From: a virus
DNA: 64,000 nucleotides
IMG/VR virus record: IMGVR_UViG_3300017767_002783
Span: 1,249-65,248 of that record
Reading direction: 5' to 3' (one strand)
A model generated the notes under the pieces. The model was not told the origin of the DNA, did not search any database, and saw nothing but the letters and a program-made list of their open reading frames with translations. Positions within the stretch are counted from its first letter, which is position 1. The number at the start of each line of letters is the position of its first letter. Positions 37,989 to 55,193 of this stretch are shown here, in pieces. The position numbers and the translations under genes were made by a program.

Positions 37989-38020
37989 AGTGAATCATTA
38001 CACCTAAACGGAGTTTGCTT

Positions 38021-38809
38021 ATGATAAAATTGGTAGATTTACTAAACGAAGGAGTTCGAGATCCAGGTATCTTTAAAGGTATATTCTTGGCTGGAGGACC
38101 TGGTAGTGGTAAATCCTATGTTGCAAAGGGTTTATTCGGTATTCCTGAAAAAATAAATGTTTCCAAGTATGGATTAAAAATGGTTAATCAAGACCAAGAA
38201 TTAGAAATGCTTTTAAAGAAATTTTATGGGCAAGATTCATCCGTAGATTACCTTAACATTCAAAAGTTTCCTGACGAATTATTTAAACAACTTACAGATC
38301 CAGATTATGCAGGATATAGTGGTTTACGAGGTTATGCTAAATCACTAAATAAACAGAGAATGGCACAATACTTGGAAGGTCGTTTGGGCGTTATTATCGA
38401 TGGAACTGGTCATAAATTTAAATCCGTACAAAAGAAAAGAAAAAGATTGATAGATTTAGGTTATGATACTTATATGGTTTTCGTAACAACCTCATTAGAA
38501 GTTGCACAGCAAAGAAACGAAACAAGACCACGAGTATTACCAGCAGATGTGGTAGAGGATAGTTGGAAAGATGTTCAGAAAAATATGGCATTCTTTCAAG
38601 GGTTGTTCGGTGGTAGTAATTTTTTAATTGTGGATAACAATAAACACTTAGAACCAAAACAGGCAGAAAAGAAATTTAAGATGTTAGTTGGTCAAGGAAT
38701 TGATAAGTTTATGAAAAAACCAGTTAAAAATAAAATAGCAAAAAAATGGATGAAACAACAAAGTTTAGTACCAAAAAAAGATTTAAAGCAAATGTTAAAA
38801 AGGAGTTAA
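38021..38809 (+). CDS. P-loop kinase (zeta-toxin/AAA_33/PNK-like) with MIKLVDLLNE leader
   Basis: Walker A LAGGPGSGKS, VIIDGTG, lid RNETRPR; GGAG precedes ATG 38021. Confidence 0.8.
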   Translation: MIKLVDLLNEGVRDPGIFKGIFLAGGPGSGKSYVAKGLFGIPEKINVSKYGLKMVNQDQELEMLLKKFYGQDSSVDYLNIQKFPDELFKQLTDPDYAGYSGLRGYAKSLNKQRMAQYLEGRLGVIIDGTGHKFKSVQKKRKRLIDLGYDTYMVFVTTSLEVAQQRNETRPRVLPADVVEDSWKDVQKNMAFFQGLFGGSNFLIVDNNKHLEPKQAEKKFKMLVGQGIDKFMKKPVKNKIAKKWMKQQSLVPKKDLKQMLKRS

Positions 38810-38810
38810 A

Positions 38811-39113
38811 ATGGCGTTTATAATAGTAGAACCTTGTGTGGGTACTTGCGATACAGCTTGTGTAGAAGTTTGTCCTGTTGATTGTATTCACGGACCTGAT
38901 GACAGAGAAGGTAGAGGAGATGAGGCAAAGGCAGATGGATTTAATCCTGACGGAAAACAACTTTACATCGATCCAGAAGAATGTATCGATTGTGGGGCTT
39001 GTGAGCCTGAATGTCCAGTTGAGGCGATTTTTGAAGAAGATGATGTTCCTGAAGAATGGGAAAAGTATACAAAATTAAATTATGAATTTTTTGGTAGAGA
39101 GTTCAATGATTAA
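38811..39113 (+). CDS. Dicluster (7Fe/8Fe, FdxA-like) ferredoxin
   Basis: CVGTCDTACVEVCPVDC and CIDCGACEPECP; AGGAG SD at 38801-38805. Confidence 0.92.
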   Translation: MAFIIVEPCVGTCDTACVEVCPVDCIHGPDDREGRGDEAKADGFNPDGKQLYIDPEECIDCGACEPECPVEAIFEEDDVPEEWEKYTKLNYEFFGREFND

Positions 39114-39465
39114 ACTTGTGGATATACTTAATGAGTATTCACATAACAACGGTTCAACGGGCGGTTCGGATGCGGGAGAACCCGAAACAGGTTGGACGAA
39201 TCCACGAAGAAAACGAAAGTTGGGAGTGGATAGTAGTAAACCCGAGCCTTGGTTTGAGAAGGGTAGATATACTCAACTTCATTTTCCAAAGGCGGATAAT
39301 CCATATGATGCAGCAAAAGGTAGAGGTGATGATAAGAGTATTCAGAGAGTTCAAGTGATAAAGAGAGTTATTAATACTGGACTTAAATATGAAGATTTTT
39401 ATGACACTATAGCAAGTTGGGATAAATATGGTGGTCAAGATTATTCAACGGATTTTGAGAAATAG
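39106..39465 (+). CDS. Hypothetical protein with MIKLVDILNE leader
   Basis: Start moved to ATG 39106, overlapping the ferredoxin stop. Confidence 0.6.
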   Translation: MIKLVDILNEYSHNNGSTGGSDAGEPETGWTNPRRKRKLGVDSSKPEPWFEKGRYTQLHFPKADNPYDAAKGRGDDKSIQRVQVIKRVINTGLKYEDFYDTIASWDKYGGQDYSTDFEK

Positions 39466-39466
39466 T

Positions 39467-40381
39467 ATGATTAAATTAAAACAATTATTAACAGAAGATT
39501 GGTTAGACGATAATAAGTGGTATCCTGCTCATACAAGAAAAACATTAGATAATATAAAATATGGGGATAAGATAGCACTCTATCCTAAATTACACGAAAA
39601 GATGTTTGGTAAAATACCTATTAGTTCATTTCATGTTACTAATCCAGACCACATAAAAACAATTGGTAAGATAATAGGTAAGAAAAAATCCATATCAACA
39701 TTCACTCGTGCTAACAATGACTCACCACTTGCTAAAGGTAGAGGTATTCAAACAGGTACGGGTGGAGTTATATTTTATGTTAGGGGAAACTTACTTGCTA
39801 AACGATACATGGACTTCGATACAGTACCCGATAAGACTGGTCGTAGATGGATAGAATCACATTACATAACTGGTGATAGAATGATTTTTAAAAATGCTAT
39901 GAAAAGAGCTGGATTCTTTAAGAAACTTGAAACAATGGAAAATAAAATTAGACGAATAGATGCGGTATTTCATGACTTATGGATGACAGATGATGAAATT
40001 GAATATGATGAATATAAAAAATTAACAGTAAAAGAAGCAGGACCTTATATTAGTAAATTTATAAAAGAGTGGTTTGATTGGCAAAACAAGTGGTTGGTAA
40101 AGAATAAATCAAAAATAAAGAAGAATCTTATAAATCCAGAAGATAAACCATCGGCATGGTGGAATGAAATTCTTATATATAATCCTAAGATTATAGATGT
40201 TTTTGTAATGGAGAGGATTACAAGGGATGGATATTGGATGCAACAATGGGGAGACAATAAACCAGGACCTTGGCAAAAAGAAATTCTCAAATATGTCCCC
40301 AAGAACAAAATAACAATCGGTACACCAGCAAAATTTAGAAAATGGTACAAGGACAGAGAAGGAATAATAGACCAAGTATGA
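39467..40381 (+). CDS. Hypothetical protein with MIKLKQLLTE leader
   Basis: Start moved to ATG 39467, one base after the upstream stop. Confidence 0.65.
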   Translation: MIKLKQLLTEDWLDDNKWYPAHTRKTLDNIKYGDKIALYPKLHEKMFGKIPISSFHVTNPDHIKTIGKIIGKKKSISTFTRANNDSPLAKGRGIQTGTGGVIFYVRGNLLAKRYMDFDTVPDKTGRRWIESHYITGDRMIFKNAMKRAGFFKKLETMENKIRRIDAVFHDLWMTDDEIEYDEYKKLTVKEAGPYISKFIKEWFDWQNKWLVKNKSKIKKNLINPEDKPSAWWNEILIYNPKIIDVFVMERITRDGYWMQQWGDNKPGPWQKEILKYVPKNKITIGTPAKFRKWYKDREGIIDQV

Positions 40382-41964
40382 TTTATCTTTCTAATTTAAT
40401 TCCGTTGAATGAGTATTCTAAATTTAGGCTCAACATCCCCTCTGACATCAGGAAGATACACAAGCTTTTTAAGAAAAACAAGAAAAAACTTTTTGTTGTG
40501 GGTGGAGCAGTAAGGGATGCAATATTAGGAAAGAGTCCAAAAGATTTTGATTTAGCCACCGATGCTAAACCCGATGAGGTATTACAAATAGCAAAAAAAG
40601 GTGGATTGAAAACCGTAGAGGTTGGAAAACAATTCGGTGTCGTGATAGTTGGTGGACACGAAATAGCAACATTCAGAAAGGATATTGGTAAAGGGAGACG
40701 CCCAAGTTCAGTTGATTATACCGACATCGAGGGTGATGTAAAAAGAAGGGATTTGACCATAAATGCGTTGTTCTACGATATGGATAGGGGTGAAATTGTA
40801 GACTTGGTTGGTGGTATAGCAGATTTAAAAAAGAAGAAGATTCGAACCGTTGGAAATGCTGTCGAAAGATTTGATGAAGATCCGTTAAGAAAGATGAGGG
40901 CATTAAGATTTCAAGGTGCACTCGGTGGTAAGTTAGGTAAGGAAACTGAAAGGGCACTAAGACAGAATCCAAGTCTTAAAGGTGTGAGTAAAGAAAGAAT
41001 CAGAGATGAGTTTGTCAAGTCGATTAGAAAGGCAAAATCACCCAAGAGGTATTTACAGCTTGCTGATTCGTTAGGATTTACAAAACAGATATTACCTGGA
41101 TTACAAGTTAAGATTCCATACATAAATGAAAACGATTATATTTTATTTTTAGCTTGGATTTTACGAAAAAATGATGTAAATTCAATAAGGAAATTAAATG
41201 GTTTAGCCTATCCTACTCAAGAAATAATTGATATTCAGTTTTTAAATTCATTACAGAATTTTAAACCTGAGAATATTTTTTTGATTAAAAAGTTTCAAGA
41301 AAAGACCAAATTGAGTAAAGGTCAAATTCTTAAATGGGGTAAGTACATTGGAAAAGATTTTAAAAAATTAATTAGATTTAAACTATCGGTAAGGGGTAGT
41401 GATGTTTCAAGTGATTTAAAAGGAAGGGACATCGGTAAAGCAATACAAAATATGGAAAAAGATAAATTCTTAAATGAAATAGCAGTTCGGAAAAAACCGA
41501 AGAAATTCAAAGACATTTATAACGCGTTACCAAGTGACTTGAAGAAACGCGTGTATAATCTAAAAAACTACGACCAGAGGAGAGATGCACATCCTGAAGG
41601 TAATGTTTTAAAACATACTATTGCTGTTACGAATAGGGCACTTAAAACAGGTGATATAGACTTCGCTCTATCAGCATTGTTTCACGATATAGGAAAAGAC
41701 TCAACTGCTAAATTACATCCAAAGAAAGGGTTTTGGACTCATTATGGACATGAGCATGTATCAGCTAAATTGGTTAAGAAATACGCCAAGTGGATAAAAT
41801 CAATGGGTGGTAATCCACTTGATATTTATTGGATAGTAAAACAACACATGAGAATGAAAGTATTTGATAAGATGAAATGGACAAAACAAGAAAAGATGAA
41901 AAAATTTAGAGCATTTGATAAGTTAAAGAAATTTACAACCTTCGATAAAGGTGGGAGAGTATAA
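40378..41964 (+). CDS. cca: Class II tRNA nucleotidyltransferase (CCA-adding / poly(A) polymerase family) with C-terminal HD domain
   Basis: VGGAVRDAILG, DFDLAT, RRDLTINAL, EDPLRKMRALRF; C-terminal HPEGNVLKHT and LFHDIGK; ATGA overlap start. Confidence 0.85.
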   Translation: MIYLSNLIPLNEYSKFRLNIPSDIRKIHKLFKKNKKKLFVVGGAVRDAILGKSPKDFDLATDAKPDEVLQIAKKGGLKTVEVGKQFGVVIVGGHEIATFRKDIGKGRRPSSVDYTDIEGDVKRRDLTINALFYDMDRGEIVDLVGGIADLKKKKIRTVGNAVERFDEDPLRKMRALRFQGALGGKLGKETERALRQNPSLKGVSKERIRDEFVKSIRKAKSPKRYLQLADSLGFTKQILPGLQVKIPYINENDYILFLAWILRKNDVNSIRKLNGLAYPTQEIIDIQFLNSLQNFKPENIFLIKKFQEKTKLSKGQILKWGKYIGKDFKKLIRFKLSVRGSDVSSDLKGRDIGKAIQNMEKDKFLNEIAVRKKPKKFKDIYNALPSDLKKRVYNLKNYDQRRDAHPEGNVLKHTIAVTNRALKTGDIDFALSALFHDIGKDSTAKLHPKKGFWTHYGHEHVSAKLVKKYAKWIKSMGGNPLDIYWIVKQHMRMKVFDKMKWTKQEKMKKFRAFDKLKKFTTFDKGGRV

Positions 41965-43694
41965 TGGATAAATTAACAAGAGAATTGATAAGAGATTTAC
42001 TACCCGAAGAAGATAGACCTAAGATTAAAAAGATTGTAGGAATCTATGGTGGTAGGTATCAACCATTTGGCCCACATCACTTAAAAACTTACAAGTGGTT
42101 AAAGTCAAAGGTAGATGATGCTTACATCACCACATCAGACATCAAAAAACCACCAAAACACCCTATGAATTACAGAGAAAAACTTCGTCATATGGTAAAG
42201 ATGGGTGTTCCTAAGAATCGTATTATAAAGGAAAAAGTTCCATTAGTGGCAAATAATGTGCTAAAAAAATACGATTCCGAGACTACAGCCGTGATATATA
42301 TATTTGGAGCTAAGGATGCTGGTAGATTGGCAGGTGGTAAAAAGAAAAGTGGTGGTTTATCGTATTTCCAAGATTATAGAAAACACAAGAATAATCTAAA
42401 AGGATATGAGGAACACGGATACTTTATGGTAGCTCCACATCAATCAGTTAGGGTTGGTGGAAAAGAAGTTAGTGGAACGGTAATGAGAGAATTACTCGGT
42501 TCACCTAAAATAGATGATAAAGAAAGACCTAAATTATTTAAACAGGCATTTGGTTATTTCGATAAAGGTGTTTATCAAATGATGACCAACAAGTTTAGAA
42601 AGTTATTTGAGATCAAAGAAAATTTACTTACAGAAAGATTAGTAGCCGCTAGAAACAAAGGACACTTGAAGAATGGTGGTAAGACAGCACTAACCACAGG
42701 TGGAATAATTTCAAAGTTTAAAGGTAGGGGGGATATATCGGACGCATTTAGTTTTGCTATGAAGGATTTGGAAAAGGCCATCGGTTCTCTTTCTGAAAAA
42801 CAAAGAAACAGAATATTCAAGAATGGTAAGGCTTGGATGAATCTTGAGGTTATGTGGCCAAAGTCATCTAATGTGATAAATTATGACAAGGCAGAAATCG
42901 TATTTCACGGAGCACTCGAATATGATGATGAAGGAAATGCAATTGGAGAGGTCAAAGATAGTGCAAGAATGTTAGCTGGTATGATTAAACAAGTCAACCA
43001 AAACATACAGAAACGATATAAGATTGGAAAACCTAATTTTTTAACCGTACCTAAACATCAAAATTTTGAAAAGAAGAAAAAGTATTTTATAAATAAGTTA
43101 AATAGATTACAGAAACAATATAACTTAAAAGATAGTGATTCACTTTCAGTATATCACCAAACCTATTGGGAAGAATTTATATTTAATGCAGCAAAACAAC
43201 ACGGATTTACAATTCCAAAGGCACCATTAAAAAAATTAACTAAAAGATGGGCATTTTTTGATAAGTCGTATAAAGTTCCAATGATTAAAAAAGATTTTAA
43301 AAATCATCCTGAATTTTTAGATTGGGTATTGACTACGGATAAAGTAGACCACGCAAAAATGGTTAAAAAGAATATGAAACCATTTGAGGAATTGTTCTTT
43401 GAAGTTGGTGCAGAAATAATGACAAATGTAAGTGGTTGGTTAGCAGCAAATCCTGACTCTACGGTTCAACGAGTAAAGAAACAATTAGATGCAGCAATTA
43501 AAGATGTGAGAAGTAAAAAGGATTTGAAAAAACTTAACACATTAAAATTACAATTGGATAAATTAAATAAGATTGGTGGTCTGAAGGCAATAGTTCCAAG
43601 TGAAGGAATAGTTTTTAAATACAACGGAAAGACATTTAAATTTACAGGAGCATTTGCACCTATTAATCAAATAACAGGATTGATGACATTCTAA
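41964..43694 (+). CDS. Cytidyltransferase-like (HIGH-type) domain fused to the C-terminal half of a ligase-like domain
   Basis: YGGRYQPFGPHH, HPMN, GAKDAGRL, SGTVMRELL; after LLTE comes RLVAARNKGHL...MNLEV...IVFHG...PSEGIVF...KFTGAFAPINQ. Confidence 0.65.
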   Translation: MDKLTRELIRDLLPEEDRPKIKKIVGIYGGRYQPFGPHHLKTYKWLKSKVDDAYITTSDIKKPPKHPMNYREKLRHMVKMGVPKNRIIKEKVPLVANNVLKKYDSETTAVIYIFGAKDAGRLAGGKKKSGGLSYFQDYRKHKNNLKGYEEHGYFMVAPHQSVRVGGKEVSGTVMRELLGSPKIDDKERPKLFKQAFGYFDKGVYQMMTNKFRKLFEIKENLLTERLVAARNKGHLKNGGKTALTTGGIISKFKGRGDISDAFSFAMKDLEKAIGSLSEKQRNRIFKNGKAWMNLEVMWPKSSNVINYDKAEIVFHGALEYDDEGNAIGEVKDSARMLAGMIKQVNQNIQKRYKIGKPNFLTVPKHQNFEKKKKYFINKLNRLQKQYNLKDSDSLSVYHQTYWEEFIFNAAKQHGFTIPKAPLKKLTKRWAFFDKSYKVPMIKKDFKNHPEFLDWVLTTDKVDHAKMVKKNMKPFEELFFEVGAEIMTNVSGWLAANPDSTVQRVKKQLDAAIKDVRSKKDLKKLNTLKLQLDKLNKIGGLKAIVPSEGIVFKYNGKTFKFTGAFAPINQITGLMTF

Positions 43695-43957
43695 TGGAAG
43701 ATTTCGAAGATATACAAGAAATCTTTAAGATGAAAAAAATGAATAATATTAAATTTATTATTAATATTATTGGTTTGGTAGGTGCATTAGGTGGTGGATG
43801 GTACAAGTTAGAAAATAGAGTATCAACATTAGAAACACAGATAGAACAAGAAAATAGTGTTAAGGCAATACAAGCCGAATTAGAATTAATGAAAAGAGAT
43901 CAAGAACTTGAGGACTTAAAATTTAAGTTTAAACTTGATTCGTTACAAAGGAGTTAG
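43694..43957 (+). CDS. Small membrane-anchored coiled-coil protein
   Basis: Hydrophobic IKFIINIIGLVGALGGGWY followed by a heptad-rich tail. Confidence 0.55.
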   Translation: MEDFEDIQEIFKMKKMNNIKFIINIIGLVGALGGGWYKLENRVSTLETQIEQENSVKAIQAELELMKRDQELEDLKFKFKLDSLQRS

Positions 43958-43960
43958 AGT

Positions 43961-44557
43961 ATGAGTGATAGTATTTTATCAACTAATCACAGAGAACGAG
44001 AAAGACAAATAGAAAATATTAAGCGTGTTGCTCGTGGTGATAAAGTTGAGAAAAAGATTTATGTTCAGATGGAAGATTTGGACGAAAAGAAAAAAAGAGA
44101 AGAAGAAGTAAGATTAGAACGAGAAAAGAAAAATGAACGCTCAGCTGCATTAAAGGATGCTAGAATGCCTTGGTTTTGTCCTAAGTGTAAAAAGGTAATG
44201 AAAAAACGATTAGATGATAAGATGTATAGATTACATCAACATTGTTTTGATTGTCAAATAACATTTGAAAATAAACTTCGTATCGAAGGAAAATACGAGA
44301 AGTGGGAAGAAAGTAAGGTGTTAAACAACCAACTTTCTTATATACGAGACCAAATTTCAAGTATAGAAGATTGGAAAGTAGAGGCTTCTAAACCAGTAGA
44401 GATTTATGATTCGGTTGGTGTTAAAGAAATAGAACTACAACAAGAAAAGTGGAGTCAGAATAAGGAACAAGTTGAAAAAATGTCTACCGAGGCCCTCGAA
44501 GAATTAAATAAAATTAAAGAAGAAGTTGAAGAAAAACTCAATAGTTTAGAAGTTTAA
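43961..44557 (+). CDS. Zinc-ribbon-containing hypothetical protein
   Basis: FCPKC...HQHCFDC. Confidence 0.65.
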   Translation: MSDSILSTNHRERERQIENIKRVARGDKVEKKIYVQMEDLDEKKKREEEVRLEREKKNERSAALKDARMPWFCPKCKKVMKKRLDDKMYRLHQHCFDCQITFENKLRIEGKYEKWEESKVLNNQLSYIRDQISSIEDWKVEASKPVEIYDSVGVKEIELQQEKWSQNKEQVEKMSTEALEELNKIKEEVEEKLNSLEV

Positions 44558-44565
44558 TATTTATA
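44557..44565 (+). promoter_or_regulatory. ATATTTATA candidate promoter motif
   Basis: Intergenic, 31 nt before the GTG at 44597. Confidence 0.45.
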
Positions 44566-44596
44566 TGTGTGAAACTATATATATCGGAGAAAATAA

Positions 44597-44857
44597 GTGA
44601 TTAAAATGAAGAAAATATTAGAAGAAAAGGTAGACCTTGATGATATTTCTATGAATCACCAAAAATTACTAAGGGTTGGAAGTAATTACATTTATAAGGC
44701 ACGAGATGGGAAACTTTGGTATGAACTTGAGGATGATATTAAAAAGAGTAAGAATAGAACTTTAATGAGATACTTTAAAAAATATGATGAAGCTCGTCTT
44801 AAACTTCAAAATGCTGGTGCAATGTTAACCAGGGCATTTGATTTGGAAAAAAGATGA
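44597..44857 (+). CDS. Hypothetical protein with MIKMKKILEE leader
   Basis: GGAG SD, GTG start. Confidence 0.6.
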   Translation: MIKMKKILEEKVDLDDISMNHQKLLRVGSNYIYKARDGKLWYELEDDIKKSKNRTLMRYFKKYDEARLKLQNAGAMLTRAFDLEKR

Positions 44858-45408
44858 TTAAATTAAAAGAATTAATAGTAGAACGAATTGTAACACATAG
44901 TGACTTTCATAAAGTCATAAATATGGCTAAAAAGGCAACTGGCGCTAAACCTAAAATACCATCAAAAACAATAAAACTTTGTAAAGAAGTAATGAAAGAT
45001 GGTTTTCATAAATTAGATTATAGAGGTAAGCCTGGTAAGAAAAGACAACCTACTAACTTAATGTATCAGTATTACGCTTATGTACAAGGATGGGGACATT
45101 CTAAATACAAAAATGATTGGGATTGGAGAAGTGATAAAGGTGATAAGATTTTAAATTGGGTTCAAACATCAGGATATAATGATGGTATATTTGATTATGA
45201 TTATTTAAAGTACCATGTAAATACTGATATGCAAGCATCGCAAGTTGTAGGAAATATCAGACCTGGTTCAAAAGATGAAGAACCAGCTTACTATTTAGTT
45301 AAAGATTATTTAAATAGTTTTAGTGCAAGACGAGGTGGTAGAGATGAGGATATGTTAGTTGCTAAAGTTCAATGGTGGTTAGATAAAAACAAAGTTGAAA
45401 CAAGATGA
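44854..45408 (+). CDS. Hypothetical protein with MIKLKELIVE leader
   Basis: ATGA overlap; leader motif. Confidence 0.6.
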   Translation: MIKLKELIVERIVTHSDFHKVINMAKKATGAKPKIPSKTIKLCKEVMKDGFHKLDYRGKPGKKRQPTNLMYQYYAYVQGWGHSKYKNDWDWRSDKGDKILNWVQTSGYNDGIFDYDYLKYHVNTDMQASQVVGNIRPGSKDEEPAYYLVKDYLNSFSARRGGRDEDMLVAKVQWWLDKNKVETR

Positions 45409-46154
45409 GAGATTACTTAAAAGAATTTAGTGATGATGTCATTGGTGATTTTTTAGTTGAGAATGATATTAAAGATATTTTAAATGAGGCTGGTTCGGCA
45501 ACAAATAATGCACCAACTGATGACGGGCCACCTACATTTTACAAATCTTTGGGACAATACAAATCCGAGTCTGAAGATTGGATACAATCATTACAGAATG
45601 ATTTAGGTTGGAAAGTAATTGATTATATACTAAGTGATGGAGCAATGGATCCAGAAGAAGATTACACTATGTCACATAGAGCAACAAATCCAATATCTCA
45701 CGGAGAGGTAAAAAAGTATAAAAAAACTTTACGGAATGTAATGGATAATTTGGGTTGGAAAGTCATGAAGTGGATGGGAGTTGATAAAGACCAACAAATG
45801 GCCGGCCCACCTATAGCATCAGGAATTGATGCTAAAACTCGTAAAGAAAATAACGAAGCAGATACTGATTTAGCGGCAAAGAAAACAAAAAAGAAATTTA
45901 AAGGTGGTCGTCCAAGACTTCATGTTGAGAAATATTCACCACTTTCAAAAGATTGGTGGGATGATGAACTTAGAGAATTAATCACAGAAGGTGGAGCATA
46001 CGGACATATGGCACATCCTTTTGATGATAAAAATTTAACATTTAAAGATTTAAAAAATATCATAGAAAGAGGTTTAGGTGGTCAGTTAGATAGGGAAGAT
46101 AATGTAACTGAAAAACTTGATGGACAAAACCTTATGATAAGTTGGAGAAATTAG
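45405..46154 (+). CDS. Modular protein ending in the N-terminal half of a ligase-like nucleotidyltransferase domain
   Basis: After LITE: GGAYGHMAHPF...TEKLDGQNLMISWRN*, with a KxDG motif-I-like sequence at 46110-46124. Confidence 0.6.
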   Translation: MRDYLKEFSDDVIGDFLVENDIKDILNEAGSATNNAPTDDGPPTFYKSLGQYKSESEDWIQSLQNDLGWKVIDYILSDGAMDPEEDYTMSHRATNPISHGEVKKYKKTLRNVMDNLGWKVMKWMGVDKDQQMAGPPIASGIDAKTRKENNEADTDLAAKKTKKKFKGGRPRLHVEKYSPLSKDWWDDELRELITEGGAYGHMAHPFDDKNLTFKDLKNIIERGLGGQLDREDNVTEKLDGQNLMISWRN

Positions 46155-46840
46155 TGAACATATTCGAAAAAGGATTGTGGAAATTAATTAACGAAGCTTC
46201 ACCAACGGGTACTTCAGGATATGGTGGATCTGGAATAACCACAGGAGATGCATGGCCCGATGGTTTATTTACCAAAAGAGGTGAAAGACGATATGTAGGA
46301 CCTGCAAGTTTAACTCGTGGAATGCAACAAGTTGATTTTCCAGCATCAGATAATATCTATGGGGGTCCTGATAGTCAGAATAATGAAAGACGGGCAAAAA
46401 GAGATGCAGGTAAACTTTACAAATATTTAAGTGATCCCGATGGTAATTCAGAAATTAAATCTGATGAGTTAAGAGATGACACACCACCATTATCACCGAG
46501 ACAAAGAACTTATGGAATACACGGATTTCACAGAAAACAAGAATATACCATTCCACCTGAAACAGCAAATTTTGTAACAACTGCTCAAACTTTAATTAAA
46601 CCAACAACACCACCAGAGGGAACAGAAAGTGGTGGAGTACCAGCAACACCTGAACCTGGTTCTAAGGAAATGGGAAGTGTAAGTGGATATAGACAAGCAC
46701 AGCAAGGTGGAGAATCGGTATTTGCAGGTAATAAAAAATTATGGAATAAATGGAAAGACCACAGAATAATGGGTGCAGTTAAAGGTAGAGAATGGAAAGG
46801 TGGTAAGTTAGTTGATTTGTTACCTAAAGGAGTTAAATAA
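46154..46840 (+). CDS. Gly/Pro/Thr-rich hypothetical protein (MNIFEKGLWKLINE leader)
   Basis: GTG start overlapping the upstream TAG; the track's TTG at 46142 is also possible. Confidence 0.55.
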   Translation: MNIFEKGLWKLINEASPTGTSGYGGSGITTGDAWPDGLFTKRGERRYVGPASLTRGMQQVDFPASDNIYGGPDSQNNERRAKRDAGKLYKYLSDPDGNSEIKSDELRDDTPPLSPRQRTYGIHGFHRKQEYTIPPETANFVTTAQTLIKPTTPPEGTESGGVPATPEPGSKEMGSVSGYRQAQQGGESVFAGNKKLWNKWKDHRIMGAVKGREWKGGKLVDLLPKGVK

Positions 46841-54572: not shown

Positions 54573-55193
54573 ATGTCAAAACAATTAATAGTAGATTATT
54601 TACCTTTTGAGATTTCAAGAGAACAGATAAACGAATCAATTAAACAGAATAATGGTCGTTTAGTGGTTCATGGTGTATTGCAGAGGTCAGATGCTAAGAA
54701 TCAAAATGGTAGAGTCTATCCACATGAGATTTTGGCAAGAGAATCGAGTAAGTATGATGAGGGTTTCATCAAACAGAAACGTGCAATGGGTGAGTTAGAC
54801 CATCCTGAATCATCAGTAGTTAATTTACAGAATGTATCTCATAATATTACCGAAATGCATTGGGAAGGTAAGAACTTAGTCGGTACGGTCGAGGTTCTTG
54901 GAACACCAAGTGGTAATATATTAACAGAATTATTTAAAGCAGGTATTAAGTTGGGTATCAGTTCTCGTGGAATGGGTTCAGTTCAACCAATGAGTGAGGG
55001 TGATGGACAACAAGTAGGAGATGATTTCGAATTAATAGCTTTTGATTTCGTATCAAATCCATCCACACACGGAGCTTTCTTATATCCTATGAAAGAAAGT
55101 GTTGGAAACGAAATACCAATTACCGAAGGTAGAACCTGTGGTAAGTATTGTAAAGTTGAAAGTATTATAAACGACATAATTAGAGGAGAGTAA
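54573..55193 (+). CDS. gp21: Prohead maturation protease (T4 gp21-like)
   Basis: [31 protein letters not shown]. Confidence 0.93.

Follow-up and report, generated by a model that had tools for sequence, protein, structure and literature searches.

How does a phage keep a ligase-type catalytic domain whose N- and C-terminal parts are encoded by two separate genes, in reverse order? This question is raised by a 64,000-nucleotide stretch of viral DNA (IMG/VR virus record IMGVR_UViG_3300017767_002783, positions 1,249 to 65,248), hereafter called the window. The window derives from a metagenome-assembled contig, 56% complete, and its source is an uncultured marine T4-like myovirus. Two open reading frames (ORFs), ORF 41964 and ORF 45405, end in what the original prediction, made from the sequence alone, read as the C- and N-terminal halves of one ligase-like domain, that is, an evolved split enzyme reassembled in trans after processing by a prohead protease. 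Taken overall, the explanation that we favour with moderate confidence is a split ligase-type enzyme whose pieces are reassembled; release of the pieces by the protease is held less firmly.

One ligase-like domain in two genes

The tail of ORF 45405 (the N piece) contains GGAYGHMxHPFDD, a helix, motif I (EKLDGQN, with a nucleophile-type lysine) and the first strand of a hairpin, and terminates in ISWRN followed by a stop. Its TAG (46152-46154) overlaps the GTG (46154-46156) of the downstream gene. The corresponding part of ORF 41964 (the C piece) bears R65 (in AARNKG), E130, H150, a helical insert, and, near its C-terminus, E382-G383 and K394. Reading of the ORF sequences confirmed the coordinates that had been proposed, the LITE and LLTE boundaries before the two pieces and the TAG/GTG overlap. 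The statement that the C half begins exactly after an LxE is correct for the window and five relatives, whereas 17 other split relatives read (E/G)ITE and then ATGG.

When aligned to the family, the N piece corresponds to residues 1-58 and the C piece to residues 60-411, with G59 as the sole gap and zero duplication. The continuous form of the domain, as given in the original prediction, is real: an unbroken ...EKxDGQN..SWKxGKLxAARNKGH... is found in the Microcystis phage Mel-JY01 protein WWT39297, in LR756508 and LR756500, and in 75 intact IMG/VR loci. The window thus holds the N and C halves of one domain in reverse order. An intact homologue of 421 amino acids (aa) aligns with the C piece at E=2.3e-76 and with the N piece at E=2.5e-22, a resemblance well above chance level, and gives no third match anywhere else in the 65.8-kb window contig.

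To place the break in a structure, an AlphaFold2 (AF2) model was made of an intact relative, L042:437-1669, whose identity to the window is 81% in the N piece and 72% in the C piece. According to the DSSP string of this model, strands 50-57 and 60-64 are consecutive, with the turn D58-G59 between them, and lie directly after the motif I strand (44-46); the break is about 12 residues past the catalytic lysine of motif I. The D58-G59 turn is variable and indel-tolerant, stands between two conserved blocks, and carries extra residues in two family members. Because the break falls in a beta-hairpin turn, and homologues are continuous across it, the two pieces are not, on this model, independent domains; the lysine strand and its hairpin partner are placed on separate polypeptides.

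The family to which the domain belongs comprises 1,942 cluster representatives at E<=1e-3, in which it is nearly always contiguous and C-terminal. In most relatives it is a single piece of about 407 residues that usually forms the C-terminus of a multi-enzyme protein, behind an NMNAT-like domain and a region called X. Family proteins are named just 'hypothetical' or 'cytidylyltransferase-like' in their sources. Searches of Pfam, PHROGs and NCBIfam with both ORFs and one intact relative returned no family for the ligase-like part. The best trace in hidden Markov model (HMM) searches was PF09414 RNA_ligase over motif I (E=0.045), with 14 bits against a cutoff of 27, and PF09511 (the Rnl1 family) gave no match. 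Sequence searches of the PDB with one protein and with a 50-sequence profile returned chance-level matches only (RNA polymerase beta, ribosomal protein eS6).

The L042 model (pLDDT 92.7, pTM 0.87) shows an RNA-ligase fold. Foldseek against the PDB places Trl1-LIG, T4 Rnl1, Rnl2, Rnl3 and DNA ligases foremost, the top 36 rows being nearly all ligases; E-values are weak (7e-3 to 0.6), and the argument is the consistency of the ligase content. Comparison by VIA gave moderate Z scores of 8.7 for Naegleria Rnl (5cot), 8.1 for Trl1, 8.0 for REL1, 7.9 for T4 Rnl1 and 7.7 for Rnl2, the leading matches each aligning 182-200 residues across model residues 1-411. Among the top 12, every row aligning more than 170 residues is a ligase (Z 6.5-8.7). 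Fold searches of BFVD and the ESM Atlas concur with the ligases and add clusters labelled DUF6267, at a template modelling (TM) score of about 0.7.

Residues G5, H10, F22, G35, K46, D48, G49, R65, F120, G123, N138, Y142, H150, G383 and K394 are invariant in 50 diverse members. K46, D48 and G49 lie within the RNA-ligase fold, which bears out the earlier reading of KxDG as ligase motif I. R65, E130, Y142/H150, E382-G383 and K394, all invariant or near-invariant, succeed one another as would be expected of motifs Ia, III, IV and V, to which they may be assigned. In the model, a helical module of about 175 residues (approximately 203-377) precedes the EG...K strands (383-395). On the strength of the model, we call the domain an RNA-ligase-fold covalent nucleotidyltransferase, outside Rnl1 and any named family.

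The split across assemblies and its constraint

Two scans of IMG/VR gave 148 related loci, which together with three phage-database loci and two own-genome loci make 153 loci mapped with the gene segments of the window; distinct contigs were counted by hand. With NT denoting the nucleotidyltransferase domain ahead of the C piece, the layout of the window (NT-C, then three to four genes, then X-N) is shared by about 50 distinct contigs, which account for 61 loci and come from more than 40 metagenome datasets; another 15 contigs have a second split type. The intact forms (NT-X-N-C, X-N-C, NT-N-C and N-C) account for the 75 loci in IMG/VR; elsewhere, Mel-JY01 encodes NT-N-C as a single 639-aa protein, the uncultured huge phage LR756508 has NT-X-N-C (915 aa), and LR756500 has a stand-alone N-C (421 aa). 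Both pieces are present in every contig long enough to span the region. Five other split-type records of 27-81 kb have exactly two pieces each, and neither these nor the window contig contain an intact copy.

A misassembly at either junction is contradicted by contigs of independent runs. Near-identical DNA is present in 14 DNA runs from 11 studies, which contain 99% of the sampled words, and contigs from four runs of four studies span 42630-42645 and 46140-46160 with 0-3 mismatches and no gaps. No joint connecting 46151 to 42636 occurs in the run contigs. Two reported joints were discarded as evidence, having merely 20-21 letters on one side, derived from other sequences. Separately, run X2, from one seawater sample, has a short high-depth contig (46110-46146) that diverges at 46146 into ...ISW/KDGKLI, from which it follows that phages with split and with intact genes co-occur.

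Selection was measured as pairwise ratios of nonsynonymous to synonymous substitution rates (dN/dS, Nei-Gojobori). In the window-type clade the ratio is 0.045 for the N piece (35 sequences), 0.11 for the C piece and 0.26-0.52 for X; in the second split type it is 0.023 (N) and 0.075 (C), and in an intact control clade 0.072 (N) and 0.103 (C). All of the family columns conserved at 90% or more (70/70) are kept in the window pieces. In every split relative the N piece ends at the identical residue, with ISW(R/K)x and then a stop, and about 50 contigs keep both frames open at a protein divergence of up to about 22%. Constraint is not relaxed after the split, and purifying selection is as strong as in intact genes. 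The 'evolved split' of the original prediction is accordingly a conserved derived state, kept under purifying selection in many contigs, and not an artefact; that the split is real and selected we regard as nearly certain.

Proposed reassembly and processing, and competing explanations

Each piece is preceded by a candidate cleavage site of the gp21 type (Table 1). In split relatives the motif stands 0-4 residues upstream of both pieces, and the C-piece junction is kept as NL(L/I)TE or as ITE followed by ATGG. Before the N piece, (L/I)(L/I)xE is preserved through 13 codon spellings in 48 split-clade loci. Family-wide, E is at domain position -1 in 95 of 125 representatives, with L/I/V at -4 and -3. 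In stand-alone members, leaders of 10-25 residues terminate in the motif, which is also the least confident segment (pLDDT<50) in both models; in the model of ORF 41964, residues 218-224 are the sole such segment. ORF 41964 itself starts with the leader-like MDKLTRELIRDLLPE. Module borders of the relative L052 carry the motif where the window has separate leader-bearing genes. Leaders resembling M(I/A)KLxxL(L/I)xE are found in 12 of 35 ORFs from 38 kb onward versus 4 of 37 upstream (loose pattern; Fisher p=0.02), and the strict form of the leader in 0 of 37 ORFs in 1-38 kb. The leader-bearing + strand ORFs in 38015-60262 include 38021, 39106, 39467, 44597, 44854, 53414, 53762, 55195, 57310, 59597 and others.

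In T4, the prohead protease gp21 cleaves after Glu, as do its giant-phage homologues (phiKZ/SPN3US), and a short N-terminal sequence, which gp21 cuts off, directs internal proteins to the prohead core; Alt is likewise processed by gp21, and in phiKZ and SPN3US the prohead protease processes ejection proteins (PMC5694885, PMC3012670). The head-module leaders of the window resemble this capsid-targeting sequence. Furthermore, a cytidylyltransferase is part of the virion proteome of the T4-like cyanophage S-CREM2, and such proteins are often detected in cyanophage virions (PMC10665884). By analogy, the enzymes of the window group are plausibly delivered with the DNA.

We propose the following scheme. 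With the coding sequence broken in the beta-hairpin turn, the lysine-bearing piece of 54 residues would be made as the tail of ORF 45405 and the 352-residue body behind the NMNAT-like domain of ORF 41964. The pieces would dock non-covalently by beta-sheet complementation to form one active site, in effect a nicked enzyme. Less firmly, a gp21-type protease may cut both precursors after the Glu of LLTE and LITE, and the cut at LLTE would place a new N-terminus at residue 60 beside the C-terminus at residue 58. The enzyme would then join a leader-tagged, capsid-delivered set consisting of the kinase, the CCA-adding enzyme, the NMNAT-like domain and the ligase-like domain. These elements do not carry equal weight. 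Reassembly in trans would best account for purifying selection together with full retention of the conserved residues, and we consider it quite probable that the enzyme functions through non-covalent assembly of its two pieces. Release of both by the prohead protease is an even call. The whole chain, in which each piece is cut from its own precursor, assembled in or en route to the capsid and injected with the DNA as a repair kit, is tentative and rather doubtful. If it were true, splitting could serve as a safety catch that leaves the enzyme inactive until processing.

Several observations weigh against parts of this scheme. M or C replaces the E in 27 of 125 representatives, so the motif may serve for something besides cleavage at Glu; the hydrophobic residues in it could have a structural function. 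The candidate site is four residues upstream of the C piece in 17 split relatives, so the exact fit to residue 60 is not general. Packaging in the capsid is drawn by analogy with T4. Contigs from RNA libraries cover both ORFs, and these, as possible DNA carry-over, cannot show transcription. Finally, the C-piece tree, whose backbone lacks resolution, disagrees with the TerL tree, in which the second split type falls inside the window-type clade.

As the main alternative, the pieces might cooperate without proteolysis, as a heterodimer of uncleaved NT-C and X-N in which (L/I)(L/I)xE is a structural or linker motif. This would accommodate the representatives with M or C in place of E, and NT and X, neighbours while the ancestral protein was a single chain, might keep the pieces in contact in the manner of the Aeh1 NrdA tails described below. 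The N piece of the second layout, however, has no carrier domain and just a leader of about 26 residues, an argument against the need for carriers. In both models confidence is lowest at the motif, which also closes the short leaders that a dozen unrelated genes carry next to a gp21-type protease gene. We consider the uncleaved heterodimer unlikely. Loss of the ligase is a different prospect: the pieces would be kept for separate roles; the C piece might, for example, serve the NMNAT-like enzyme as a module for RNA binding or regulation, and the N piece might be a functional tail of X. They do sit on different carriers, and X-N and NT-C are each selectable for their other domains, but the strongest selection is on the N piece itself (0.045 versus 0.26-0.52 for X), constraint equals that of intact genes, and both pieces accompany each other in every sufficiently long contig. 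Moreover, catalytic-type residues are all kept on both pieces (N: K46, D48, G49; C: R65, E130, H150, E382, G383, K394), which makes independent new functions improbable.

Decay into pseudogene fragments would explain an interrupted domain that misses G59 and has no sequence-level rejoining element, but is scarcely credible for frames that stay open in about 50 contigs diverging by up to about 22%, at a dN/dS of 0.02-0.11 and with no conserved position lost. An assembly artefact or chimera, or else rejoining in cis (by DNA rearrangement, an intein or splicing) to restore one chain, might be suspected in an incomplete metagenome contig whose family includes a distant member rejoined by a split intein. 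Against this, both junctions are crossed with 0-3 mismatches by independent assemblies and by Logan contigs of four studies, ORF 41964 and ORF 45405 have no Hint/intein Pfam match, and the sequences at the break are ISWRN-stop and LLTE/RLV. The piece order is also reversed on one strand, so that deletion or read-through cannot join the pieces. We therefore hold artefact and rejoining in cis to be very improbable. Rejoining catalysed by the protease itself (transpeptidation) was considered and rejected, as the acyl-enzyme at Glu would bear the upstream carrier and not the N piece. Non-covalent reassembly of the split enzyme remains our preferred reading.

History, known systems and neighbouring genes

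In a TerL tree, the two split types form one clade (Shimodaira-Hasegawa-like approximate likelihood ratio test, SH-aLRT, 99) nested in the intact forms, with Mel-JY01 and LR756508 at the root. The split is thus derived, and old enough to have diversified. Within the split clade, TerL identity to the window is 82%-94%, and C-piece identity is as low as 78%.

The second layout belongs to a sister group (L028-L040, L043, L078) in which NT-X-C is one protein, with the junction ...NELLSEG/KLIAARNKGH, and the N piece is a stand-alone gene of about 80 residues, with a leader of about 26 residues (...KYSPLTKEWWDDVVQRELLNE/GGAYGHM...ISWRED-stop). Examples are L028:1-3153 (NT-X-C) and L028:3717-4013 (N piece). 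The N gene sits between the homologues of the genes at 43961 and 46840, and in the intact L081 and L084 the order is NT-X-N-C, 43961 homologue, 46840 homologue, TerL. In the clade of the window the N piece, with or without X, is about 1.7 kb downstream of the C piece. Both split layouts equal an exchange of adjacent blocks, for which tandem duplication followed by reciprocal deletions would be the simplest route. The left breakpoints are unlike in the two layouts, yet each comes directly after (L/I)(L/I)xE. The LLTE of the window corresponds to the former border of NT and X, which reads ...KELINE/FLVDVD... in L052; ORF 45405 retains ...DFLVEND....

Relatives also include giant frames, L052:1-7056 (>2,352 aa) and L046:1735-7056 (1,774 aa), which fuse the CCA-adding enzyme, the NMNAT-like domain, X, further modules and the ligase-like domain, have (L/I)(L/I)xE at module borders, and look like polyproteins. 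In a distant family member (L154:7140-9215; also L155 and L156), a split intein stands exactly between the K and T of motif I. Gene 1 of L154 encodes 154 aa, with a leader, an N-extein ending in ...QEK and a Cys-start Hint piece; a free-standing 136-aa ORF follows, and then a 404-aa gene with an intein C piece of about 38 residues (...NNILIHN/TDGQN...), so that the N-to-C order is retained.

In known split phage enzymes, it is usually a mobile element that interrupts the gene, the parts stay in their original order, and the products are either joined again by inteins or kept in contact by extra tails. The NrdA of the T4-like Aeromonas phage Aeh1 is encoded by two genes whose products assemble non-covalently and are active without RNA or protein splicing; the break is occupied by the homing endonuclease gene mobE, the two genes retain the original order, and assembly relies on new tails (PMC3045599). 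In the window, by comparison, the order is swapped, the partition falls cleanly in a hairpin turn, and family searches recognised no mobile-element gene among the intervening ORFs. In 'fractured genes' with split inteins, a phage enzyme gene is interrupted at a conserved site, giving two parts (Dassa et al. 2009, PMC2677866). L154 matches their layout exactly, whereas the window pieces are broken 12 residues further on and have no intein parts, so trans-splicing is not possible. With T4, phiKZ and SPN3US the window group shares a gp21-family protease gene, leaders ending in (L/I)xE and the motif at internal borders. We know of no case in T4 or the giant phages where such a motif releases two halves of one enzyme.

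The ATP-dependent RNA ligases (T4 Rnl1, Trl1-LIG, T4 Rnl2, T. brucei REL1 and Naegleria Rnl) have KxDG and the nucleotidyltransferase fold in common with the window family. The latter differs in that its sequence matches no ligase entry of Pfam or the PDB significantly, in the position of a helical module of about 175 residues, which comes after the motif III region but ahead of the EG...K strands rather than behind them, and in an extra conserved N-terminal GGxxGHxxHPFDD and its usual fusion behind an NMNAT-like domain. The helical domain that follows motif V in Rnl1 is not seen in the window family, and the matched ranges end within the Rnl1 nucleotidyltransferase domain. Atlas clusters partly labelled DUF6267 (PF19782, an uncharacterised phage family) resemble the domain across its entire fold, the helical module included (TM 0.69-0.71 over 352-358 residues), and by language-model similarity the closest neighbours of ORF 45405 are small clusters with the DUF6267 label. 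The DUF6267 HMM gave no match in the window, in intact relatives or in the homologous genes of Mel-JY01 and the LR7565xx records. As a lead from fold and language-model similarity, DUF6267 may at best be a sister family. A 'Split RnlA RNA ligase 1' of the T4-related Acinetobacter phage 133 (BFVD D9I6G0), so annotated and a weak fold match, belongs to a different ligase family (Rnl1 proper); a literature search found no paper on it.

The present case is set apart by a clean break inside a ligase-type catalytic core, between the lysine motif and the next motif, with swapped order and no intein. As the split state is under strong selection in two layouts of an abundant marine T4-like phage group, it amounts to a natural experiment in ligase fragment complementation, and might help in designing split ligases or capping enzymes. 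The family itself is large (about 1,900 representatives) and unannotated, is regularly fused to an NMNAT-like domain, and has a protease-type motif ahead of the domain. These features make directly testable the idea that marine phages deliver RNA-repair or NAD-related enzymes in their capsids.

Table 1. Positions of the two domain pieces, their carriers and neighbouring genes in the window
Feature	Position	Strand	Description
ORF 45405	45405-46154	+	249 aa; C-terminus ...LITE/GGAYGHMAHPFDD...TEKLDGQNLMISWRN-stop is the N piece
X region of ORF 45405	45405-45977	+	Poorly conserved carrier; C-terminal linker KYSPLSKDWWDDELRE
LITE	45978-45989	+	Directly before N piece; family pre-domain (L/I)(L/I)xE
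N piece of ligase-like domain	45990-46151, stop to 46154	+	54 aa; from alignment to intact relatives
ORF 41964	41964-43694	+	576 aa; reads ...ENLLTE/RLVAARNKGH...; codon of R225 begins at 42636
NMN/NaMN-adenylyltransferase-like (HxGH-superfamily) nucleotidyltransferase (NT) domain	41964-42623	+	Carrier of C piece; weak PF01467, TIGR00125/NMNAT; Foldseek
LLTE	42624-42635	+	Candidate gp21-type (L/I)xE cleavage site, directly before C piece
C piece of ligase-like domain	42636-43694	+	352 aa; family residues 60-411
Four genes between C and N pieces	43694-43957, 43961-44557, 44597-44857, 44854-45408	+	Block 43694-45408; 43961-44557 is zinc-ribbon-like
Downstream gene	46154-46840	+	GTG overlaps TAG of N piece; leader-like MNIFEKGLWKLINE
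P-loop kinase	38021-38809	+	Leader-tagged; weakly PSTK/polynucleotide-kinase-like, E=3e-5
CCA-adding enzyme with HD domain	40342-41964	+	Leader-tagged; within upstream leader-bearing block 38015-41964
T4 gp21-type prohead core protease	54573-55193	+	PF03420 Peptidase_S77, 3e-26; phrog_207, 9e-51

Upstream of the C piece lie the kinase and the CCA-adding/HD enzyme; in combination with the ligase-like enzyme, they have the appearance of a set for RNA end repair. Downstream, the window contains a T4-type head module with TerL (48119), the gp20 portal (49709) and the gp23 capsid protein (62098), in addition to the protease. The homologue of the 43961 gene is directly 3' of the intact gene in relatives, and the gene at 46154-46840 is missing from some split relatives. 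In intact relatives, the X region separates the NT domain from the ligase domain.

For the NT domain, the AF2 model of ORF 41964 has NadM NMNAT, NaMNAT and PPAT as its best Foldseek matches (E 4e-5 to 1e-3). At 42036-42065 (ORF 41964 residues ~25-40) it reads GRYQPFGPHH, compared with GRFQPFHxGH or TxGH in LR756508 and LR756500; the first His of HxGH is substituted throughout the marine group (consensus GRFQPFGxHH), given which the activity or substrate of the domain may differ there. Most window-type relatives have an NT-C protein with an additional N-terminal module of about 370 residues that is absent from the window. These long forms are frames of 950-956 aa in L011, L014, L016, L017, L022 and L027 and of 941-944 aa in P0014/P0015; the 576-aa NT-C protein of the window is the shorter variant.

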